A DNA stretch of 6,182 nt from a virus (taxonomy: Duplodnaviria > Heunggongvirae > Uroviricota > Caudoviricetes). This document shows positions 1 through 6,182 of the stretch, one piece after another. The translations under genes were made by a program, and so were the position numbers. Under the pieces are notes generated by a model. The model did no database searches. It was not told where the DNA came from and saw only the letters and a list, made by a program, of their open reading frames with translations. The stretch spans positions 1-6,182 of the IMG/VR virus record IMGVR_UViG_2744054976_000007, one strand, 5' to 3'. Position 1 is the first letter of the stretch; each line of letters starts with the position of its first letter.

Positions 1-560
1 AGCGCAGCTTCCTCGGCAACAGCGGCAGGAAATTCCGCGAAGGCGGCAAAAACGTCCGAGACGAACGCTAAGTCTTCTGAAACAGCAGCGGGACAGAGCG
101 CCTCAGCTGCGGCAGGTTCAAAAACAGCGGCTGCGTCGTCTGCCAGTGCTGCGTCAACAAGTGCCGGGCAGGCCTCAGCCAGTGCCACCGCTGCCGGAAA
201 ATCGGCAGAAAGCGCCGCATCATCCGCTTCAACAGCCACAACGAAGGCTGGCAGCCACTGAGCAAGCCACTGCAGCAGCGAGGTCTGCTTCTGCAGCAAA
301 AACCTCTGAAACAAATGCAAAGACTTCAGCAGACAATGCTGCTTCCTCTAAGGCGGCAGCCGCATCGTCCGCTGGTTCAGCGGCGTCATCGGCATCATCT
401 GCGTCTGCTTCAAAAGATGAGGCGACCAGACAAGCGTCAGCAGCGAAAGGTAGTGCCACGACAGCAACAACGAAAGCATCAGAGGCGGCAGGCAGTGCGA
501 CGGCTGCATCTCAGAGCAAAGTTGCTGCTGAATCCGCGGCAACGCGTGCCGAAACAGCGG
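1..560 (+). repeat. Quasi-repetitive Ala/Ser/Thr-rich coding repeats (KTSETNAK-type) of the tail-fibre shaft
   Basis: Reiterated gcngcn/tcngcn codons give repeated AAKTSETNAK and SASAA motifs in the translation. This low-complexity region also explains the spurious overlapping ORFs on both strands (68..265, 229..459, 348..563, 315..701). Confidence 0.5.
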
Positions 561-2062
561 CAAAACGGGCAGAGGATATTGCTGATGCCGTATCTCTGGA
601 AGATGCGAGTACGACGAAAAAAGGTGTGGTTCAGCTCAGTAGCGCCACTAACAGCCCGTCTGAAACGCTGGCTGCGACACCAAAAGCGGTTAAGGCGGTA
701 ATGGATGAAACGAACAAGAAAGCGCCCTTAAATAGTCCTGCACTGACCGGAACGCCAACAACGCCAACTGCGCCAAAAGGTACTAATAATACTCAGATCG
801 CAAGTACGGCTTATGTGATGGCCGCGATTGCCGCCCTTGTAGACTCGTCGCCTGACGCACTGAATACGCTGAACGAGTTAGCGGCGGCGCTGGGCAACGA
901 CCCGAATTTTGCGACCACCATGACTAACGCGCTTGCGGGTAAGCAACCGAAAGATGCCACCCTGACGGCGCTGGCCGGTCTTGCTACTGCGGCAGACAGG
1001 TTTCCGTATTTTACGGGGAATGATGTCGCCAGCCTGGCAACCCTGACAAAAGTCGGGCGGGATATTCTTGCGAAATCGACCGTTGCTGCCGTTATCGAAT
1101 ACCTCGGTTTACAGGAAACGGTAAATCAGGCTTCTGGCGCATTACAGAAAAACCAGAACGGCGCAGATATTCCGGGAAAAGATACCTTCACCAAAAACAT
1201 TGGTGCCTGCCGCGCATATAGCGCATGGCTGAATATTGGTGGCGATAGTCAGGTCTGGACAACTGCGCAATTTATTTCGTGGCTGGAGAGTCAGGGGGCA
1301 TTTAACCATCCTTACTGGATGTGCAAAGGCTCATGGGCTTATGCAAATAATAAGGTTATTACAGATACAGGTTGCGGAAATATTTGTCTTGCAGGTGCTG
1401 TGGTGGAAGTTATTGGCACTCGCGGCGCAATGACCATACGCGTTACTACGCCGAGCACGTCCAGCGGTGGCGGAATTACTAACGCTCAATTCACTTATAT
1501 TAATCATGGTGATGCTTACGCTCCTGGCTGGCGACGAGACTACAACACGAAAAACCAGCAGCCTGCATTTGCTTTAGGGCAAACAGGACGCAGGGTCGCA
1601 AATGATAAAGCTGTTGGCTGGAACTGGAATAGCGGTGTTTATGATGCAGATATCAGTGGTGCATCGACATTAATCCTCCACTTCAATATGAATGCGGGGA
1701 GTTGCCCTGCTGTACAGTTCCGCGTGAATTACAGGAACGGCGGTATTTTTTATCGTTCAGCGCGTGATGGTTATGGCTTTGAAGCTAACTGGTCAGAGTT
1801 TTACACCACAACACGCAAACCCTCTGCGGGGGATGTTGGTGCATATACGCAGGCAGAATGTAACTCAAGGTTTATTACAGGTATTCGCCTTGGCGGTCTG
1901 TCATCTGTTCAGACATGGAAAGGCCCCGGCTGGTCTGACAGGTCAGGTTATGTCGTTACGGGTTCAGTTAACGGAAACCGTGATGAATTAATTGATACAA
2001 CTCAGGCAAGGCCAATTCAGTATTGCATTAATGGGACGTGGTATAACGCGGGGAGTATTTAA
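1..2062 (+). CDS. Side tail-fibre protein (constant region plus variable C-terminus Sv); 5'-partial at the window edge and interrupted by an apparent 1-nt frameshift near 250-261
   Basis: Frame +1 from nt 1 reads SAASSATAAGNSAKAAKTSETNAKSSETAAGQSASAAAG...STATTKAGSH and stops at 259-261. Frame +2 (the 146..2062 ORF in the track) continues with the same motif type (EQATAAARSASAAKTSETNAKTSADNAASS...) and is open to the stop at 2060-2062. The frame +2 translation upstream of ~250 is Pro/Gln/Arg-rich and unlike a fibre, so the true gene changes frame there. Downstream are a conserved fibre domain (KKGVVQLSSATNSPSETLAATPKAVKAV...AAVIEYLGLQETVN) and a variable C-terminus ending PIQYCINGTWYNAGSI. Family assignment is from recalled lambda Stf / Mu S / P1 S / e14 Stf proteins. 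Confidence 0.85.
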   Translation, partial: AQLPRQQRQEIPRRRQKRPRRTLSLLKQQRDRAPQLRQVQKQRLRRLPVLRQQVPGRPQPVPPLPENRQKAPHHPLQQPQRRLAATEQATAAARSASAAKTSETNAKTSADNAASSKAAAASSAGSAASSASSASASKDEATRQASAAKGSATTATTKASEAAGSATAASQSKVAAESAATRAETAAKRAEDIADAVSLEDASTTKKGVVQLSSATNSPSETLAATPKAVKAVMDETNKKAPLNSPALTGTPTTPTAPKGTNNTQIASTAYVMAAIAALVDSSPDALNTLNELAAALGNDPNFATTMTNALAGKQPKDATLTALAGLATAADRFPYFTGNDVASLATLTKVGRDILAKSTVAAVIEYLGLQETVNQASGALQKNQNGADIPGKDTFTKNIGACRAYSAWLNIGGDSQVWTTAQFISWLESQGAFNHPYWMCKGSWAYANNKVITDTGCGNICLAGAVVEVIGTRGAMTIRVTTPSTSSGGGITNAQFTYINHGDAYAPGWRRDYNTKNQQPAFALGQTGRRVANDKAVGWNWNSGVYDADISGASTLILHFNMNAGSCPAVQFRVNYRNGGIFYRSARDGYGFEANWSEFYTTTRKPSAGDVGAYTQAECNSRFITGIRLGGLSSVQTWKGPGWSDRSGYVVTGSVNGNRDELIDTTQARPIQYCINGTWYNAGSI
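1092..1117. other. Left crossover site of the Din-type invertible segment (gix/pix-like 26-bp site) inside stf
   Basis: TTATCGAATACCTCGGTTTACAGGAA at 1092-1117 matches the recalled gix/hix/pix-type site. The reverse complement of 4145-4170 is TTATCTAAAACCTCGGTTTACAGGAA, a 24/26 match. Extended inverted repeat 1092-1131 versus 4131-4170 is 35/40 identical with a perfect 25-bp core (1101-1125 / 4137-4161). The site encodes VIEYLGLQE at the constant/variable boundary; the predicted exchange point is the central dinucleotide 1104-1105. Confidence 0.75.
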
Positions 2063-2064
2063 CG

Positions 2065-2598
2065 ATGATGCACTTAAAAAACATTACTGCTGGCAACCCT
2101 AAAACAAAAGAGCAATACCAGCTAACAAAGCAATTTAACATCAAATGGCTTTATTCAGATGATGGAAAAAACTGGTATGAGGAACAAAAGAATTTCCAGC
2201 CAGACACTTTGAAAATGGTCTATGACCATAACGGCGTTATTATTTGTATTGAAAAGGATGTTTCAGCAATTAATCCAGAGGGTGCAAGCGTCGTTGAATT
2301 ACCTGATATTACAGCAAATCGCCGGGCTGATATTTCGGGGAAATGGATGTTCAAAGATGGCGTAGTGATAAAGCGAACTTATACCGAGGAAGAGCAGAGG
2401 CAACAAGCGGAAAATGAAAAGCAAAGCCTGTTGCAACTTGTCAGGGATAAAACCCAGCTATGGGACTCACAGCTACGGCTGGGCATCATTTCCGACGAGA
2501 ATAAACAAAAATTAACCGAGTGGATGCTCTATGCGCAGAAAGTCGAATCTACAGACACTTCCGGCCTGCCAGTAACGTTTCCCGAACAACCAGAATGA
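2065..2598 (+). CDS. Tail-fibre assembly protein (Tfa chaperone) for the Sv fibre tip
   Basis: 177-aa ORF beginning 3 nt after the stf stop, with GGAG about 8 nt upstream. N-terminus [40 protein letters not shown] is typical of the phage Tfa/U family and about 70% identical over ~120 aa to the convergent ORF at 2627..3154. Confidence 0.9.
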   Translation: MMHLKNITAGNPKTKEQYQLTKQFNIKWLYSDDGKNWYEEQKNFQPDTLKMVYDHNGVIICIEKDVSAINPEGASVVELPDITANRRADISGKWMFKDGVVIKRTYTEEEQRQQAENEKQSLLQLVRDKTQLWDSQLRLGIISDENKQKLTEWMLYAQKVESTDTSGLPVTFPEQPE

Positions 2599-2602
2599 GA
2601 GA

Positions 2603-2629
2603 AGGCCCGCTATCGGGCCTTAATTTTTA
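2603..2629. terminator. Putative bidirectional rho-independent terminator between the convergent tfa genes
   Basis: AGGCCCG-CTAT-CGGGCCT (2603-2620) forms a 7-bp GC-rich stem with a 4-nt loop, followed by TAATTTTTA on the + strand and a pyrimidine-rich stretch on the - strand. It lies in the 28-bp gap between the two tfa stop codons. Confidence 0.5.
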
Positions 2630-3154
2630 CTCTGGTTTTTGTGGCCATTCAGGATTTGCCGTATCCACACGGCTGGCCAGAACACTGTAGCGTTCCCATG
2701 CTTCCAGTCGTGTGCGTTCCTCGTCTGTTGCCATATTCAGCCTGACAGCGCGTTCCAGCGGTTGGATGACTGATTCAGCTTCGGAAAGCAATGCGGCCTT
2801 TTGTGATTCGGCCTGTTGTTGTTGCTCGTCTGCCGTATAAATCCGTTTAACCACAGCTCCGTCCCTAAACATCCACTTACCGGAATCATCAGCGCAGCGG
2901 TTGGCTGTAATATCTGGAACCTCAACGACGCTATAACCTTCAGGGTTAAGCGTGGAGGCATCTTTGGTGATGGCGACAATAATATTATTTGCATCGTAAA
3001 CAATCTTTATTGTGTCTGGCTGAAAGTTTTTCACTTCCTCATACCAGTTTTTTCCGTCTTCGGACCATAACCAGATAACATCAAAATTCTTTGTTAGCTG
3101 ATATTGTTCTTTTGTTTTTGGATTTCCAGACTTAATATTTTTTAAATGCTGCAT
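2627..3154 (-). CDS. tfaE: Tail-fibre assembly protein (Tfa') paired with the alternative fibre tip Sv'
   Basis: 175-aa [57 protein letters not shown]...; matches my recollection of E. coli e14 TfaE. Position and orientation (immediately downstream of Sv' on the - strand) fit the Mu U' / e14 tfaE arrangement. Symbol is from memory, not a search. Confidence 0.9.
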
Positions 3155-3157
3155 AAA

Positions 3158-4120
3158 TTACACCTGTACGACGTTATACCATGTGCCATTGATGTATTTT
3201 TGTATTGGTCTGAATACTGCCGGATCATCGCCATCAACTGCACCGATAATGCCAAGCCCCGTAATTGCATGACCTGATTTCTCATACATCACGCCTTTTT
3301 GCATAGTCTGAACAACACGTGTACCAAGTCGGACATCTCTCACATAACGTGAGTCAAAATTACCATAATTGCCGGGAATAACTTGCGCACCGCAAAGCCA
3401 GTTGCCATTGTTGTCCATGTACGCCTGACCATCGGTGCCATTGGCTGTCCTTGAGTTATTAATCATGTAGATGCCAAATTGCTTATTCCCCAGTCCACCA
3501 ATCATAAATTTGCGATCAGCGTGGTCCTGACGAAGTAATGCCTGCGCACCATCGGTGGATACCGCATTGCGTCCCAAAATAACATTCTGGTCACGCATAT
3601 GAATCCACATGCCGGTACTACTGTTAATTGCAAAACGGTTTGCAAATATATCCCCTGTAACATCAAGACCATGCCCCATGCTTATCCGACCAGTTCTGAG
3701 ATTAAGCGTAAAGGGGCGTAGTGGCCCTATATCACCATTTTCTCCCTCATTCTCTCGTGTAGGGATGATATGCAGGCATTCTTCAGAACGACGAAAAATA
3801 GCACCAAAAGATGAATTAAATATCCTCAGTGCATTGACTGTCGATATTTTTACTTCACTGCTGAAAAGGGCTTTAACAAGGACAGACAAAGCATCCCATT
3901 TAAGAGTCATCAGGTCTTTTGTTGTGGTGCTCTGGCGGCTTCTCCATTTGAAATATTCATTGCCGTTGTCGCCTGTTTCAAACCACATGTATGAATCAGT
4001 GTCGCTGTCGGCATTATTTTTAAAACCAATCTTTGCCCAGTCAGTATTTCTAATCCAGGCAAGGATTGAGTCGTTTTCAAAAGTAAGCCCACCGGACAAG
4101 GTATCGCCATTCTTTTGCAC
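3158..4120 (-). CDS. Alternative tail-fibre C-terminal segment (Sv'), start-less and expressed only after inversion fuses it to the stf constant region
   Basis: Open frame on the - strand from the in-frame stop at 4163-4165 down to the stop at 3158-3160; the track starts it at a GTG (4118-4120). After the crossover site it reads LGLQETVNRARNAVQKNGDTLSGGLTFEND..., sharing LGLQETVN with the + strand fibre, and ends PIQKYINGTWYNVVQV (compare PIQYCINGTWYNAGSI). No SD or start of its own; the real coding extent probably begins at the crossover (~4157). Confidence 0.8.
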   Translation of the reverse strand: MQKNGDTLSGGLTFENDSILAWIRNTDWAKIGFKNNADSDTDSYMWFETGDNGNEYFKWRSRQSTTTKDLMTLKWDALSVLVKALFSSEVKISTVNALRIFNSSFGAIFRRSEECLHIIPTRENEGENGDIGPLRPFTLNLRTGRISMGHGLDVTGDIFANRFAINSSTGMWIHMRDQNVILGRNAVSTDGAQALLRQDHADRKFMIGGLGNKQFGIYMINNSRTANGTDGQAYMDNNGNWLCGAQVIPGNYGNFDSRYVRDVRLGTRVVQTMQKGVMYEKSGHAITGLGIIGAVDGDDPAVFRPIQKYINGTWYNVVQV

Positions 4121-4144
4121 GGCGTTCCTGGCCCTGTTTACCGT

Positions 4145-4170
4145 TTCCTGTAAACCGAGGTTTTAGATAA
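4145..4170. other. Right crossover site of the invertible segment (gix/pix-like), inverted relative to 1092-1117
   Basis: TTCCTGTAAACCGAGGTTTTAGATAA; see left site. The two mismatches lie in the outer half-site, and an in-frame TAA sits in that outer half on the - strand reading. Confidence 0.75.
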
Positions 4171-4224
4171 TGGCGGTTTCTGGCCTGCATGGCATGATTT
4201 GTGCTTTTGGACGGGAGATTCAGC

Positions 4225-4515
4225 GTGCTGATTGGCTATGTAAGGGTATCAACAAATGACCAGAATACAGACCTGCAACGAAACGCTCTTGTTTGTGCAG
4301 GATGTGAACAAATATTTGAAGATAAATTAAGCGGAATAAGGACAGGCCGACCTGGATTAAAACGTGCTTTAAAGCGCCTTCAAAAAGGTGACGCACTGGT
4401 TGTCTGGAAACTGGACTGACTGGGTCACTGTATGCGGCATCTTGTCGTGCTGGTGGTGGAAGCCTGGAAGAAGTATCGGGTGTTGCTGAACCGTGTTGAT
4501 ACGTCAACTGCACAG
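4225..4515 (+). pseudogene. pin: Din-family DNA invertase (Pin/Gin/Hin-like serine recombinase) remnant: premature stop after codon 65, 3' part decayed and deleted
   Basis: From GTG 4225: LIGYVRVSTNDQNTDLQRNALVCAGCEQIFEDKLSGIRTGRPGLKRALKRLQKGDALVVWKLD then TGA (4417-4419). Recalled Gin/Pin proteins continue WKLDRLGRSM...; here the Arg codon position is TGA. The next ~30 codons still read [15 protein letters not shown]...NRVDTSTAQ (compare LGRSMKHLISLVGEL...TDSIDTSSP) before homology stops near 4515. The track's 4201 start is an upstream in-frame GTG. Confidence 0.8.
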
Positions 4516-4639
4516 GATATTGAATGGCCAGCACTGCCGTAGGGTAAAACATATAAATTCTATAATTAGATGTATCTTTCCATTTACGGCAAGGAAGGGG
4601 GCTTGGAAGACGTAAAGCATCTCACACTGAGATTATTTT

Positions 4640-5230
4640 TTATATGTCAGGTGTCTGAAGTTTTGCTTTGGCTCTTAAAATGGTTTGCCGCGAGGTTTTG
4701 AATTCCCGGGCAATGGCACTTATACTTACACCTGACTTAATTCGTTCGAATACCACCTGTTTCTGTTCTTCATTTAACACAGGTAGTCGACCAAAACGTT
4801 TCCCTGCGCCGCGGGCTCTTACTATCCCGGAATGAGTGCGTTCAAGTAAAAGGTCTCGTTCAAATTCAGCGACTGCTGAAATTACTTGCATCATCATTTT
4901 TCCTGTTGGACTGGTCAGGTCAATGCCAGCCAATGCTAAGCAATGCACTCTGATACCTGTTTCGGTCAGTTGTTCCACTGTTTTCCTGATATCCATTGCA
5001 TTACAACCAAGGCGATCCAGTTTTGTCACAATCAATTGATCACCACATTTCAGGCGAGCAAGCAACCGGTTAAAACCAGGACGCTCACTGGTTGCTGCTG
5101 AGCCGCTAATGTGTTCTTCGATTATTTGCTGAGGTTTGATTTTAAAACCTGCACTTTCGATTTCCCGGCGTTGATTTTCGGTGGTCTGATCCAGCGTTGA
5201 TATCCGACAGTAAGCAAAAATTCGAGACAT
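4640..5230 (-). CDS. Small serine recombinase (resolvase/invertase family), intact, not the cognate Din invertase
   Basis: 196-aa [25 protein letters not shown]... with the catalytic-serine motif (RISTLDQ), the KLDRLG motif and a C-terminal resolvase-type HTH ([23 protein letters not shown]). Only distantly similar to the pin remnant. Weak SD (GAG about 9 nt upstream). Confidence 0.9.
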
Positions 5231-5351
5231 AGTGAGACTCTATACGAAATTGGTGTTCATATCATAATGCATCTCAGAAAATAATTATGATTATTTTTGT
5301 GCATATTTGTATGTACACGTTCGAAAATAAACGAATGCGTATGCAACCCCG

Positions 5352-5390
5352 TAATTTTGGTGAGACCCAAAATCGATTTTGTGAAAAATG
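5352..5390. promoter_or_regulatory. Palindrome cluster upstream of the recombinase gene: candidate operator or recombination (res-like) site
   Basis: Perfect 14-bp palindrome CAAAATCGATTTTG (5368-5381), overlapping the inverted repeat ATTTTGG-N6-CCAAAAT (5354-5373) and followed by ATTTTGTGAAAAAT. Resolvase-family res sites typically sit just upstream of the recombinase gene; functional assignment is inference only. Confidence 0.25.
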
Positions 5391-5546
5391 GCTTTAACTC
5401 GGTTTGTTTTTCGAGTTCCGGGCGGACTCAAGGAAGAAGAATAGTGTTGCGTGTTATTTTAACCAGATTTCAAGTTGTTTGGTCGTGGAAAAGTGGAGCA
5501 AAATGTTGTTAAAGTGGAAAAATGATAAAAAAGTAAGTTTATTATA

Positions 5547-5780
5547 TTACATTTTACCATTTAAATTTTGGTTGTCTTTAAGAACTGATATCGCTGTTTG
5601 TAATAATTCTTTGTTATCCAGCCATGATTTTTTCTTTATGTTTCCTTCAATGTAATCAAGCAATGTTCTGGTATTGATAGGTCTTCCCTGTTTTGCTACT
5701 TCCACTACAGCATTCCCTAGGATAATTCTTACTTCAGGAAGCTGCGCAGGGAACCACTTTAGGGTGTCTTTTGATTTCAT
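5547..5780 (-). CDS. Hypothetical small protein (77 aa from the SD-supported ATG; 88 aa if the upstream ATG at 5813 is used)
   Basis: ORF MKSKDTLKWFPAQLPEVRIILGNAVVEVAKQGRPINTRTLLDYIEGNIKKKSWLDNKELLQTAISVLKDNQNLNGKM. AAGGAA lies 7-8 nt upstream of the ATG at 5780, whereas the ATG at 5813 has no SD. Same strand as, and 316 bp upstream of, the recombinase gene. No family recognised. Confidence 0.5.
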   Translation of the reverse strand: MKSKDTLKWFPAQLPEVRIILGNAVVEVAKQGRPINTRTLLDYIEGNIKKKSWLDNKELLQTAISVLKDNQNLNGKM

Positions 5781-6182
5781 GAAGATATTCCTTAAAATAT
5801 TATTGATTTTCATTGCGATATTGTATGTCTGATTCAGGATATGTTGACTTATACATCGGTTTTGTCTGGGTTATTGGATATGCCAATCCCTAATTTTATT
5901 AGGGCATAACTAAAAATGCTGAATATGATAAGGAGAGATGTGATTATCAGTATGCTGTTCATATAGCCTCGAATTAGTAATGTGTTATATATGATATAGT
6001 TGACAATTTTTATCTTGGGTGTTCTTAAAGTTCGTAGATAAACATTGTCGTTTCAGGTATACAGGAATGCTAACAGGTGGCAGCAAAAATCAGGCGGTTT
6101 ATGGCGCAAGCTGAAGCGGCAACTGCAAACTATCTTATGCAGAGACTCTACACAGATTGGGTTTAAAAGTATACATAGATAA

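Follow-up and report, generated by a model that had tools for sequence, protein, structure and literature searches.

Invertase pseudogenes are common, and the members of the Din family can in general replace one another, as seen in the cross-complementation of Gin, Cin, Pin and Hin. The described systems closest to the locus considered here are the G segment of phage Mu with its invertase Gin, the P segment of the Escherichia coli cryptic prophage e14 with PinE, and the H segment of Salmonella with Hin. In Gin, Ser9 is the linking serine (PMC3575834), and three Fis sites lie within the coding region of Mu gin (PMC3378877). The enhancer of the Hin system is 65 bp in length and is located ~100 bp from the hix site, the nearest crossover site, and the Fis- and enhancer-contact residues K47, R48 and K51 as well as Q151, R154 and L155 of Hin have been described as unique to the Fis-dependent invertases (PMC3798978). 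With K-12 prophage sequences as queries, inversions were reported only in e14, and the P segment served by PinE was also reported to be inverted in trans by PinQ/PinR (PMC12529663). Instances of interchangeability cited in the same work are Fin, and the activity of PinE on the H and G segments (PMC12529663).

The DNA analysed here, hereafter the window (the whole stretch of 6182 bases), comes from a Rac-type lambdoid prophage of E. coli, of which it covers the tail-fibre end. Among complete genomes, those of TUM9868 and 2017.02.04CC are closest to it, each matching its full length at 99.9% identity, and in TUM9868 the locus is flanked by tail genes (tape measure, gpJ and lom) on one side and by pinR-ydfK-ynaM-uspF-ompN on the other. 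The features of the window, with the basis on which each was placed, are listed below; in the layout given by open reading frames and Pfam matches, ydfK lies beyond pinR.

1–1091, plus strand: constant N-terminal part of stf, the lambdoid side tail-fibre gene, whose start is upstream of the window (Pfam Phage_fiber_2)
1092–1117, no strand: left gix-like crossover site, TTATCGAATACC TC GGTTTACAGGAA (left arm of the inverted repeat)
1104–4158, no strand: invertible segment of ~3.05 kb, containing Sv, tfa, tfa′ and Sv′
up to 2062 (end of stf), plus strand: Sv, C-terminal exon of the fibre (open reading frames, Pfam)
2065–2598, plus strand: tfa (open reading frame; Pfam Caudo_TAP)
2627–3154, minus strand: tfa′, the second tfa (open reading frame; Pfam Caudo_TAP)
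3158–4144 (end approximate), minus strand: Sv′, alternative fibre exon (open reading frame, Pfam)
4145–4170, no strand: right gix-like crossover site, TTCCTGTAAACC GA GGTTTTAGATAA (right arm of the inverted repeat)
4225–4419, plus strand: gin-type invertase stub, 64 codons and TGA (Pfam Resolvase; identity to Mu gin)
4245–4312, no strand: predicted Fis-dependent recombinational enhancer (sis) inside the stub (from position and identity to Mu gin)
4420–4456, plus strand: post-stop invertase remnant of the e14-pinE type, 12 residues (82% to pinE)
4454–4461, no strand: invertase/tfaR fusion junction with TGG-rich microhomology (three-way alignment, with which the Megablast boundaries agree)
4457–4542, plus strand: 3′ remnant of a tfaR-type tail-fibre assembly gene, 27 codons and TAG at 4540–4542 (Pfam Caudo_TAP)
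4543–4639, no strand: native tfaR-pinR intergenic spacer (one mismatch to K-12-type Rac over 4543–4642)
4640–5230, minus strand: pinR, intact, encoding a 196-aa serine recombinase of the Rac/Qin type (Pfam Resolvase and HTH_7, full length)

The segment between the crossover sites yielded Pfam matches to Caudo_TAP (twice), gp37_C and Gp34_trimer. An inverted repeat of 38 nt (1088–1125 and 4137–4174; 92% complementary) encloses it, and each arm contains a 26-bp site; the two sites are inverted relative to each other and have matching central dinucleotides (TC and GA), and the right-hand site differs by one mismatch from the Mu gix site TTCCTGTAAACCGAGGTTTTGGATAA. The alternative C-terminal exons and their assembly genes are opposed, each in frame with one constant part, and when 1104–4158 was flipped in silico, the constant N-terminal part of Stf became fused in frame to the alternative exon. 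By this arrangement, the locus is to be regarded as a G-segment-type tail-fibre switch.

Relative to the TUM9868 locus (L010), in which the stf CDS is intact (2838 nt), the window lacks two nucleotides (GA) at 252/253, which leads to a frameshift in stf and a TGA at 259–261. Should this deletion be genuine, the switch would in this strain serve a fibre gene that is broken in either orientation; the deletion could instead be a sequence error. The 5′ ends of the two opposed tfa genes form another inverted repeat, of 161 nt (2065–2225 and 2994–3154; 75% complementary), which would be expected for paralogous assembly genes and is a possible substrate for internal homologous rearrangement.

The invertase gene beside the segment is represented by a stub only. 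Its frame begins with GTG at 4225 and runs through 64 invertase codons (VLIGYVRVSTNDQ...VVWKLD) to a TGA at 4417–4419; an initial reading made from the letters and their open reading frames (the sequence-only reading) had correctly recognized the intact N-terminus up to WKLD and a TGA at the position of an Arg codon, but had placed the stop after codon 65, whereas the stop itself is codon 65. A column-by-column alignment with Mu gin gave 186 identities in 191 nt (97%) over 4225–4415 and complete identity over 4225–4336, and the 64 residues match positions 2–73 of the 145 positions of Pfam Resolvase (E = 3.5e-18). The N-terminal motif of the serine recombinases, GYVRVSTNDQ, is present together with the nucleophile Ser9 (Gin numbering). 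The catalytic DRLGRS motif is broken and reads D-stop-L-G-H-C. Where the TGA stands, the intact relatives have an Arg codon (CGC in Mu gin, CGG in e14 pinE, and AGG and AGA in two others), and three residues of the motif are altered within 15 nt (R to stop, R to H and S to C), the codons after the stop specifying G-H-C where every invertase has G-R-S. The E-helix and the C-terminal helix-turn-helix domain are absent, the homology ending at ~4456–4460 (~codon 78) as against a full length of ~185–193 aa. Thus, a nonsense codon at a catalytic Arg, two further substitutions in the motif and the replacement of the 3′ part by tfaR support the view, already put forward in the sequence-only reading, that the cognate invertase gene is dead. 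RefSeq labels the stub as a “recombinase family protein” of 64 or 72 aa, and the 72-aa annotated ORF was rejected as a functional protein, because the catalytic Arg residues are missing from it, along with the E-helix and the DNA-binding domain.

The dead gene may have kept a cis-acting role. Two candidate 15-mers of the G..C form can be read from the sequence at 4246–4260 and 4295–4309, and the centre of the first is ~96 bp from the centre of the crossover site. The predicted position fits the published geometry of such enhancers, and the region belongs to the part of the stub that is fully identical to Mu gin; an enhancer is accordingly predicted there and may be retained within the stub.

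The DNA after the stop proved to differ from its initial description as ~30 codons of fading invertase similarity, followed by a deletion junction and unrelated AT-rich DNA. The similarity extends over ~13 codons (4420 to ~4456–4460) and is of the pinE type: from 4416 onward, the identity to gin falls to 51%, and that to e14 pinE and to the invertase of phage vB_EcoM-606R2 rises from ~70% to 82%, with 4431–4456 identical to K-12 pinE. Decay of gin was rejected as the source of the fading homology, since the stretch from 4416 to 4460 is pinE-type and decay within it is limited to four substitutions at 4417–4431; the dead gene is best described as a gin/pinE mosaic and not as a gin gene decaying to noise. 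Relative to pinE-type genes, the four substitutions are AGA/CGG to TGA, GGG to GGT, CGC to CAC and AGT to TGT, and the next 26 nt are those of K-12 pinE; so tight a cluster suggests one multi-base event and not a gradual decay.

The junction itself is real. Alignment to gin and pinE, which the sequence-only reading had proposed as a check, placed the TGA on the Arg codon and the end-point of the invertase at 4456–4460, and in the three-way alignment the matches to tfaR start at 4454–4457. The DNA beyond the junction, which had been taken as unrelated, consists of the 3′ end of tfaR and the native tfaR-pinR spacer. The region 4457–4542 matches positions 104–131 of the 131 positions of Caudo_TAP (E = 4.6e-12), in the same frame as the N-terminal match to Resolvase, and this remnant, the last 27 codons of tfaR, is ~97% identical to K-12-type tfaR; the spacer is 97–100% identical to that of K-12-type Rac. 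The tfa remnant ends differently in three prophage contexts (…EWPALP and a stop, …EWPTGPIIE and a stop, and …EWPTNPV…; L009/ET76 9449–9553 and L002 6353–6436), and in ET76 and L002 its homology to the window stops at ~4530, which suggests later recombination inside the short remnant. K-12-type Rac shares with the window only 1–693 (86% identity, to stfR) and 4454–6182 (99% identity, covering the tfaR 3′ end, the spacer, pinR and ydfK); therefore, 694–4453 is a graft that replaces the C-terminal part of stfR and most of tfaR.

The scar is widespread. When complete E. coli genomes were searched with the 121-nt junction (4380–4500) at a coverage of at least 80%, it was found in 538 of 5426, such that ~10% of them carry the exact scar, and it occupies at least three prophage sites, namely Rac, the lambda attachment site at bio-ybhB (ybhB-bioA) and the ompW-trp region (beside trpA). 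The trp-linked copy (L002) is 96% identical and shares with the window the TGA, both missense substitutions (H and C) and the junction; it also has two extra stop codons, which would fit a pseudogene drifting without coding constraint. The scar is to be considered old and not an artefact. The sequence-only reading had itself raised the case of an intact invertase whose stop is an error of sequencing or assembly; here the truncation is included in this case. Nothing speaks for this directly, although the private 2-nt deletion at 252/253 makes small errors in the window conceivable, and its probability is negligible: an identical TGA and junction recur in the 538 independently assembled genomes and in the 96%-identical copy, and the DNA downstream is tfaR and not invertase, so that a single-base correction could not give a 185-aa ORF. 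The case was accordingly ruled out. The current RefSeq labels, a short “recombinase family protein” and a partial tail-fibre assembly gene, hide the nature of the scar. The relic itself is ordinary prophage decay; the new elements are how the scar is built in detail, as a gin/pinE mosaic joined to tfaR, how common it is, and the evidence from populations that an orphaned switch still flips.

This last evidence was obtained by searching complete genomes with a query that combines the right-hand junction expected from inversion with the dead stub of the window. The flipped junction with the dead stub was found at full length and 98–100% identity in 59 genomes, and the window orientation in 97 (these are counts of assemblies, in which kinship is ignored and some strains are entered twice). 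At the Rac locus, 19 genomes have the structure, 9 of them flipped and 10 unflipped. When flipped in silico, the window aligned with the genome of strain 1217KP in one HSP comprising all 6182 nt at 99.94% identity, and the flipped TUM9868 locus aligned with the same genome without gaps and with 4 mismatches in 12,534 nt, chromosomal flanks included. The segment thus occurs in both orientations. Because the dead stub and the junction are common to the two, inversion must have come after the death of the invertase, and these comparisons lend no support to the suggestion of the sequence-only reading that the present orientation is probably locked. A switch that is really locked could still appear in two orientations through homologous exchange with prophages that have a live invertase, or through rare RecA recombination across the repeat. 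The constant part of stf and the flanks from the gix site to the stub are common to many prophages, which makes replacement of the segment possible, and the repeat arms share 25 identical nt with all mismatches outside them, for which reason the position of the crossover within the repeat gives no discrimination between RecA-mediated and site-specific events. However, 25 bp is at the lower limit for RecA-mediated exchange, the splits are near even at two independent loci (9:10 and ~50:87), and TUM9868 and 1217KP differ by a clean inversion and 4 SNPs across 12.5 kb with chromosomal flanks. A locked switch is therefore improbable.

Which enzyme inverts the segment is a separate matter; the likeliest driver is a trans-acting invertase of the Din family, ahead of PinR. 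The sequence-only reading had admitted such an enzyme as an exception to locking, and this exception now appears the best explanation, for which genome content provides a candidate: TUM9868 carries at icd an e14-like prophage with an intact 184-aa pinE. The tail-fibre P segment of that e14-like prophage is cut by IS1 (L012, 28311–31226), and TUM9868 thus holds an invertase that lacks a complete substrate of its own together with a window-type switch that lacks an invertase of its own. At the icd/e14 site, where the presence of a Din invertase was checked in two genomes (TUM9868 and 1217KP), the attachment site of the flipped 1217KP is empty, which weighs against this reading. Across the 5426 genomes, pinE-type 3′ halves occur in 1148–1607.

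The sequence-only reading had missed pinR, which is intact and located ~100 bp from the relic. It is conceivable, albeit at rather low probability, that this adjacent PinR or its paralogue PinQ took over, in which case the switch would not be orphaned and would have been re-partnered with a distantly related serine recombinase. Besides the intactness and proximity of the gene, this alternative can draw on the near-even split at the Rac locus and on the flipped state of 1217KP, which is without e14 at icd. Moreover, inversion at a Din-type segment has been reported for overproduced PinQ, which raised inversion of the e14 P segment from ~30% to 88%; according to the authors, it is inverted as well by PinR, whose identity to PinQ is 99%. 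In the same study, however, deletion of pinE locked the P segment despite the presence of pinQ and pinR (PMC12529663).

The protein itself also argues against a takeover. PinR is only 36–38% identical to Gin and PinE, its recognition helix is unlike the Din type, and at the six positions at which Hin has K/R/K and Q/R/L it has N/R/A and V/E/R, so that equivalents of Hin K47, K51, Q151, R154 and L155 are lacking. Its catalytic set is incomplete as well: the sequence KLDRLGCN has a Cys in place of the second Arg of DRLGR, at the position of R71 in gamma-delta resolvase and R68 in Gin. This residue, PinR-76, is Cys in the PinR/PinQ of E. coli Rac and Qin and Arg in Gin, PinE and gamma-delta resolvase, and Arg is also kept in PinR-family proteins that are 77–83% identical, on plasmids and in other genera. 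On sequence, Cys76 of PinR/PinQ sits oddly with the published claim of a highly active PinQ. The PinR of this Rac lineage (WP_000086518.1) further differs from the K-12 type by G101A and P149L, the latter of which turns the conserved GRPP arm, directly ahead of the helix-turn-helix domain, into GRLP; this change, too, weighs against PinR as the driver.

The population data point in the same direction. In the bio-ybhB context, queries containing pinR sequence have one matching place only, and both orientations are present there; because of this, PinR is apparently not required. Among the genomes with this context, the unflipped ET76 and ES1 have no pinR/Q match to the whole window, and the flipped ES6 has no second tfaR-pinR junction. 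A further variant of the PinR alternative is regarded as unlikely: the stub would have been kept for its Fis enhancer and the switch handed to a non-canonical PinR, with Cys at the catalytic-Arg position and without the Fis-contact residues, to give a hybrid, phage-inducible switch of alternative or decoy tail fibres for anti-phage defence. If true, such a hybrid would parallel the defence role reported for PinQ and StfE2 of e14.

The preferred reading, to which a probability of about 0.8 may be given, is that of a recombination scar beside an orphan switch that is inverted in trans, most likely by a Din-family enzyme. In the proposed course of events, a Rac-type lambdoid prophage received, as a graft, a cassette of the Mu G-segment type, in which a gin/pinE-mosaic invertase gene accompanied two gix sites and a pair of alternative fibre tips, both with an assembly gene of their own. 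The right-hand joint lies within two genes, in the invertase gene at ~codon 78 and in tfaR at 27 codons from the stop. Since the joint lies inside the invertase gene, the stub is non-functional, and it carries in addition the TGA and the two missense changes in DRLGRS. What the switch needs in cis seems to have been kept, namely both 26-bp sites, with GA and TC as matching cores, and ~190 nt from the start of gin, the part that holds the Fis enhancer in Mu; as these elements survive, the 3.05-kb segment would stay a competent substrate. Its inversion would then continue in natural populations through a recombinase of other origin, most likely a canonical Din-family invertase (of the PinE, Gin or Cin type) of a co-resident prophage or plasmid.

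The locus would thus represent a natural and widespread case of an invertible segment that has been orphaned and must rely on a recombinase gene at another place, and its state would tie Rac-type and other lambdoid prophages to the other prophages or plasmids of the cell. It may also serve as a natural test bed for the action of PinR/PinQ on Din-type sites and for selection that keeps the enhancer-bearing 5′ end of an invertase gene.

In comparison with the known systems, the likeness to the Mu G segment and Gin lies in the right-hand site, which is 1 nt off Mu gix, in the ~3-kb segment with two alternative fibre tips, each with an assembly gene, and in the first 191 nt of the invertase gene. 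By contrast, the host element here is lambdoid (Rac-type) and not Mu, the fibre exons are not those of Mu S/U, the DNA similarity to Mu beginning only near 4133, and the invertase is a mosaic that is cut and fused to tfaR. K-12 Rac, whose stfR-tfaR-pinR module matches the two ends of the window, contains neither an invertible segment nor a gin stub. In the case of the H segment of Salmonella, the segment is likewise served by an invertase encoded elsewhere, Fin of the prophage Fels-2 being the example (PMC12529663), but hin is intact there; the cognate gene is gone here, and trans action would therefore be obligatory. The P segment of e14 is also a tail-fibre switch of a cryptic prophage in E. 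coli, found in both orientations among sequenced genomes; its pinE is identical to the window over 4431–4456 in K-12, and a pinR/Q-type gene occurs in the same genome. Unlike the present locus, the P segment is 1.8 kb in length, has pix sites with AA cores and is adjacent to an intact pinE, whereas the adjacent Din gene here is dead and a pinR-type gene lies next door. Judged by these comparisons, the switch resembles the Mu G segment in its sites and in the 5′ end of gin, and the e14 P segment as a cryptic-prophage switch seen in both states.
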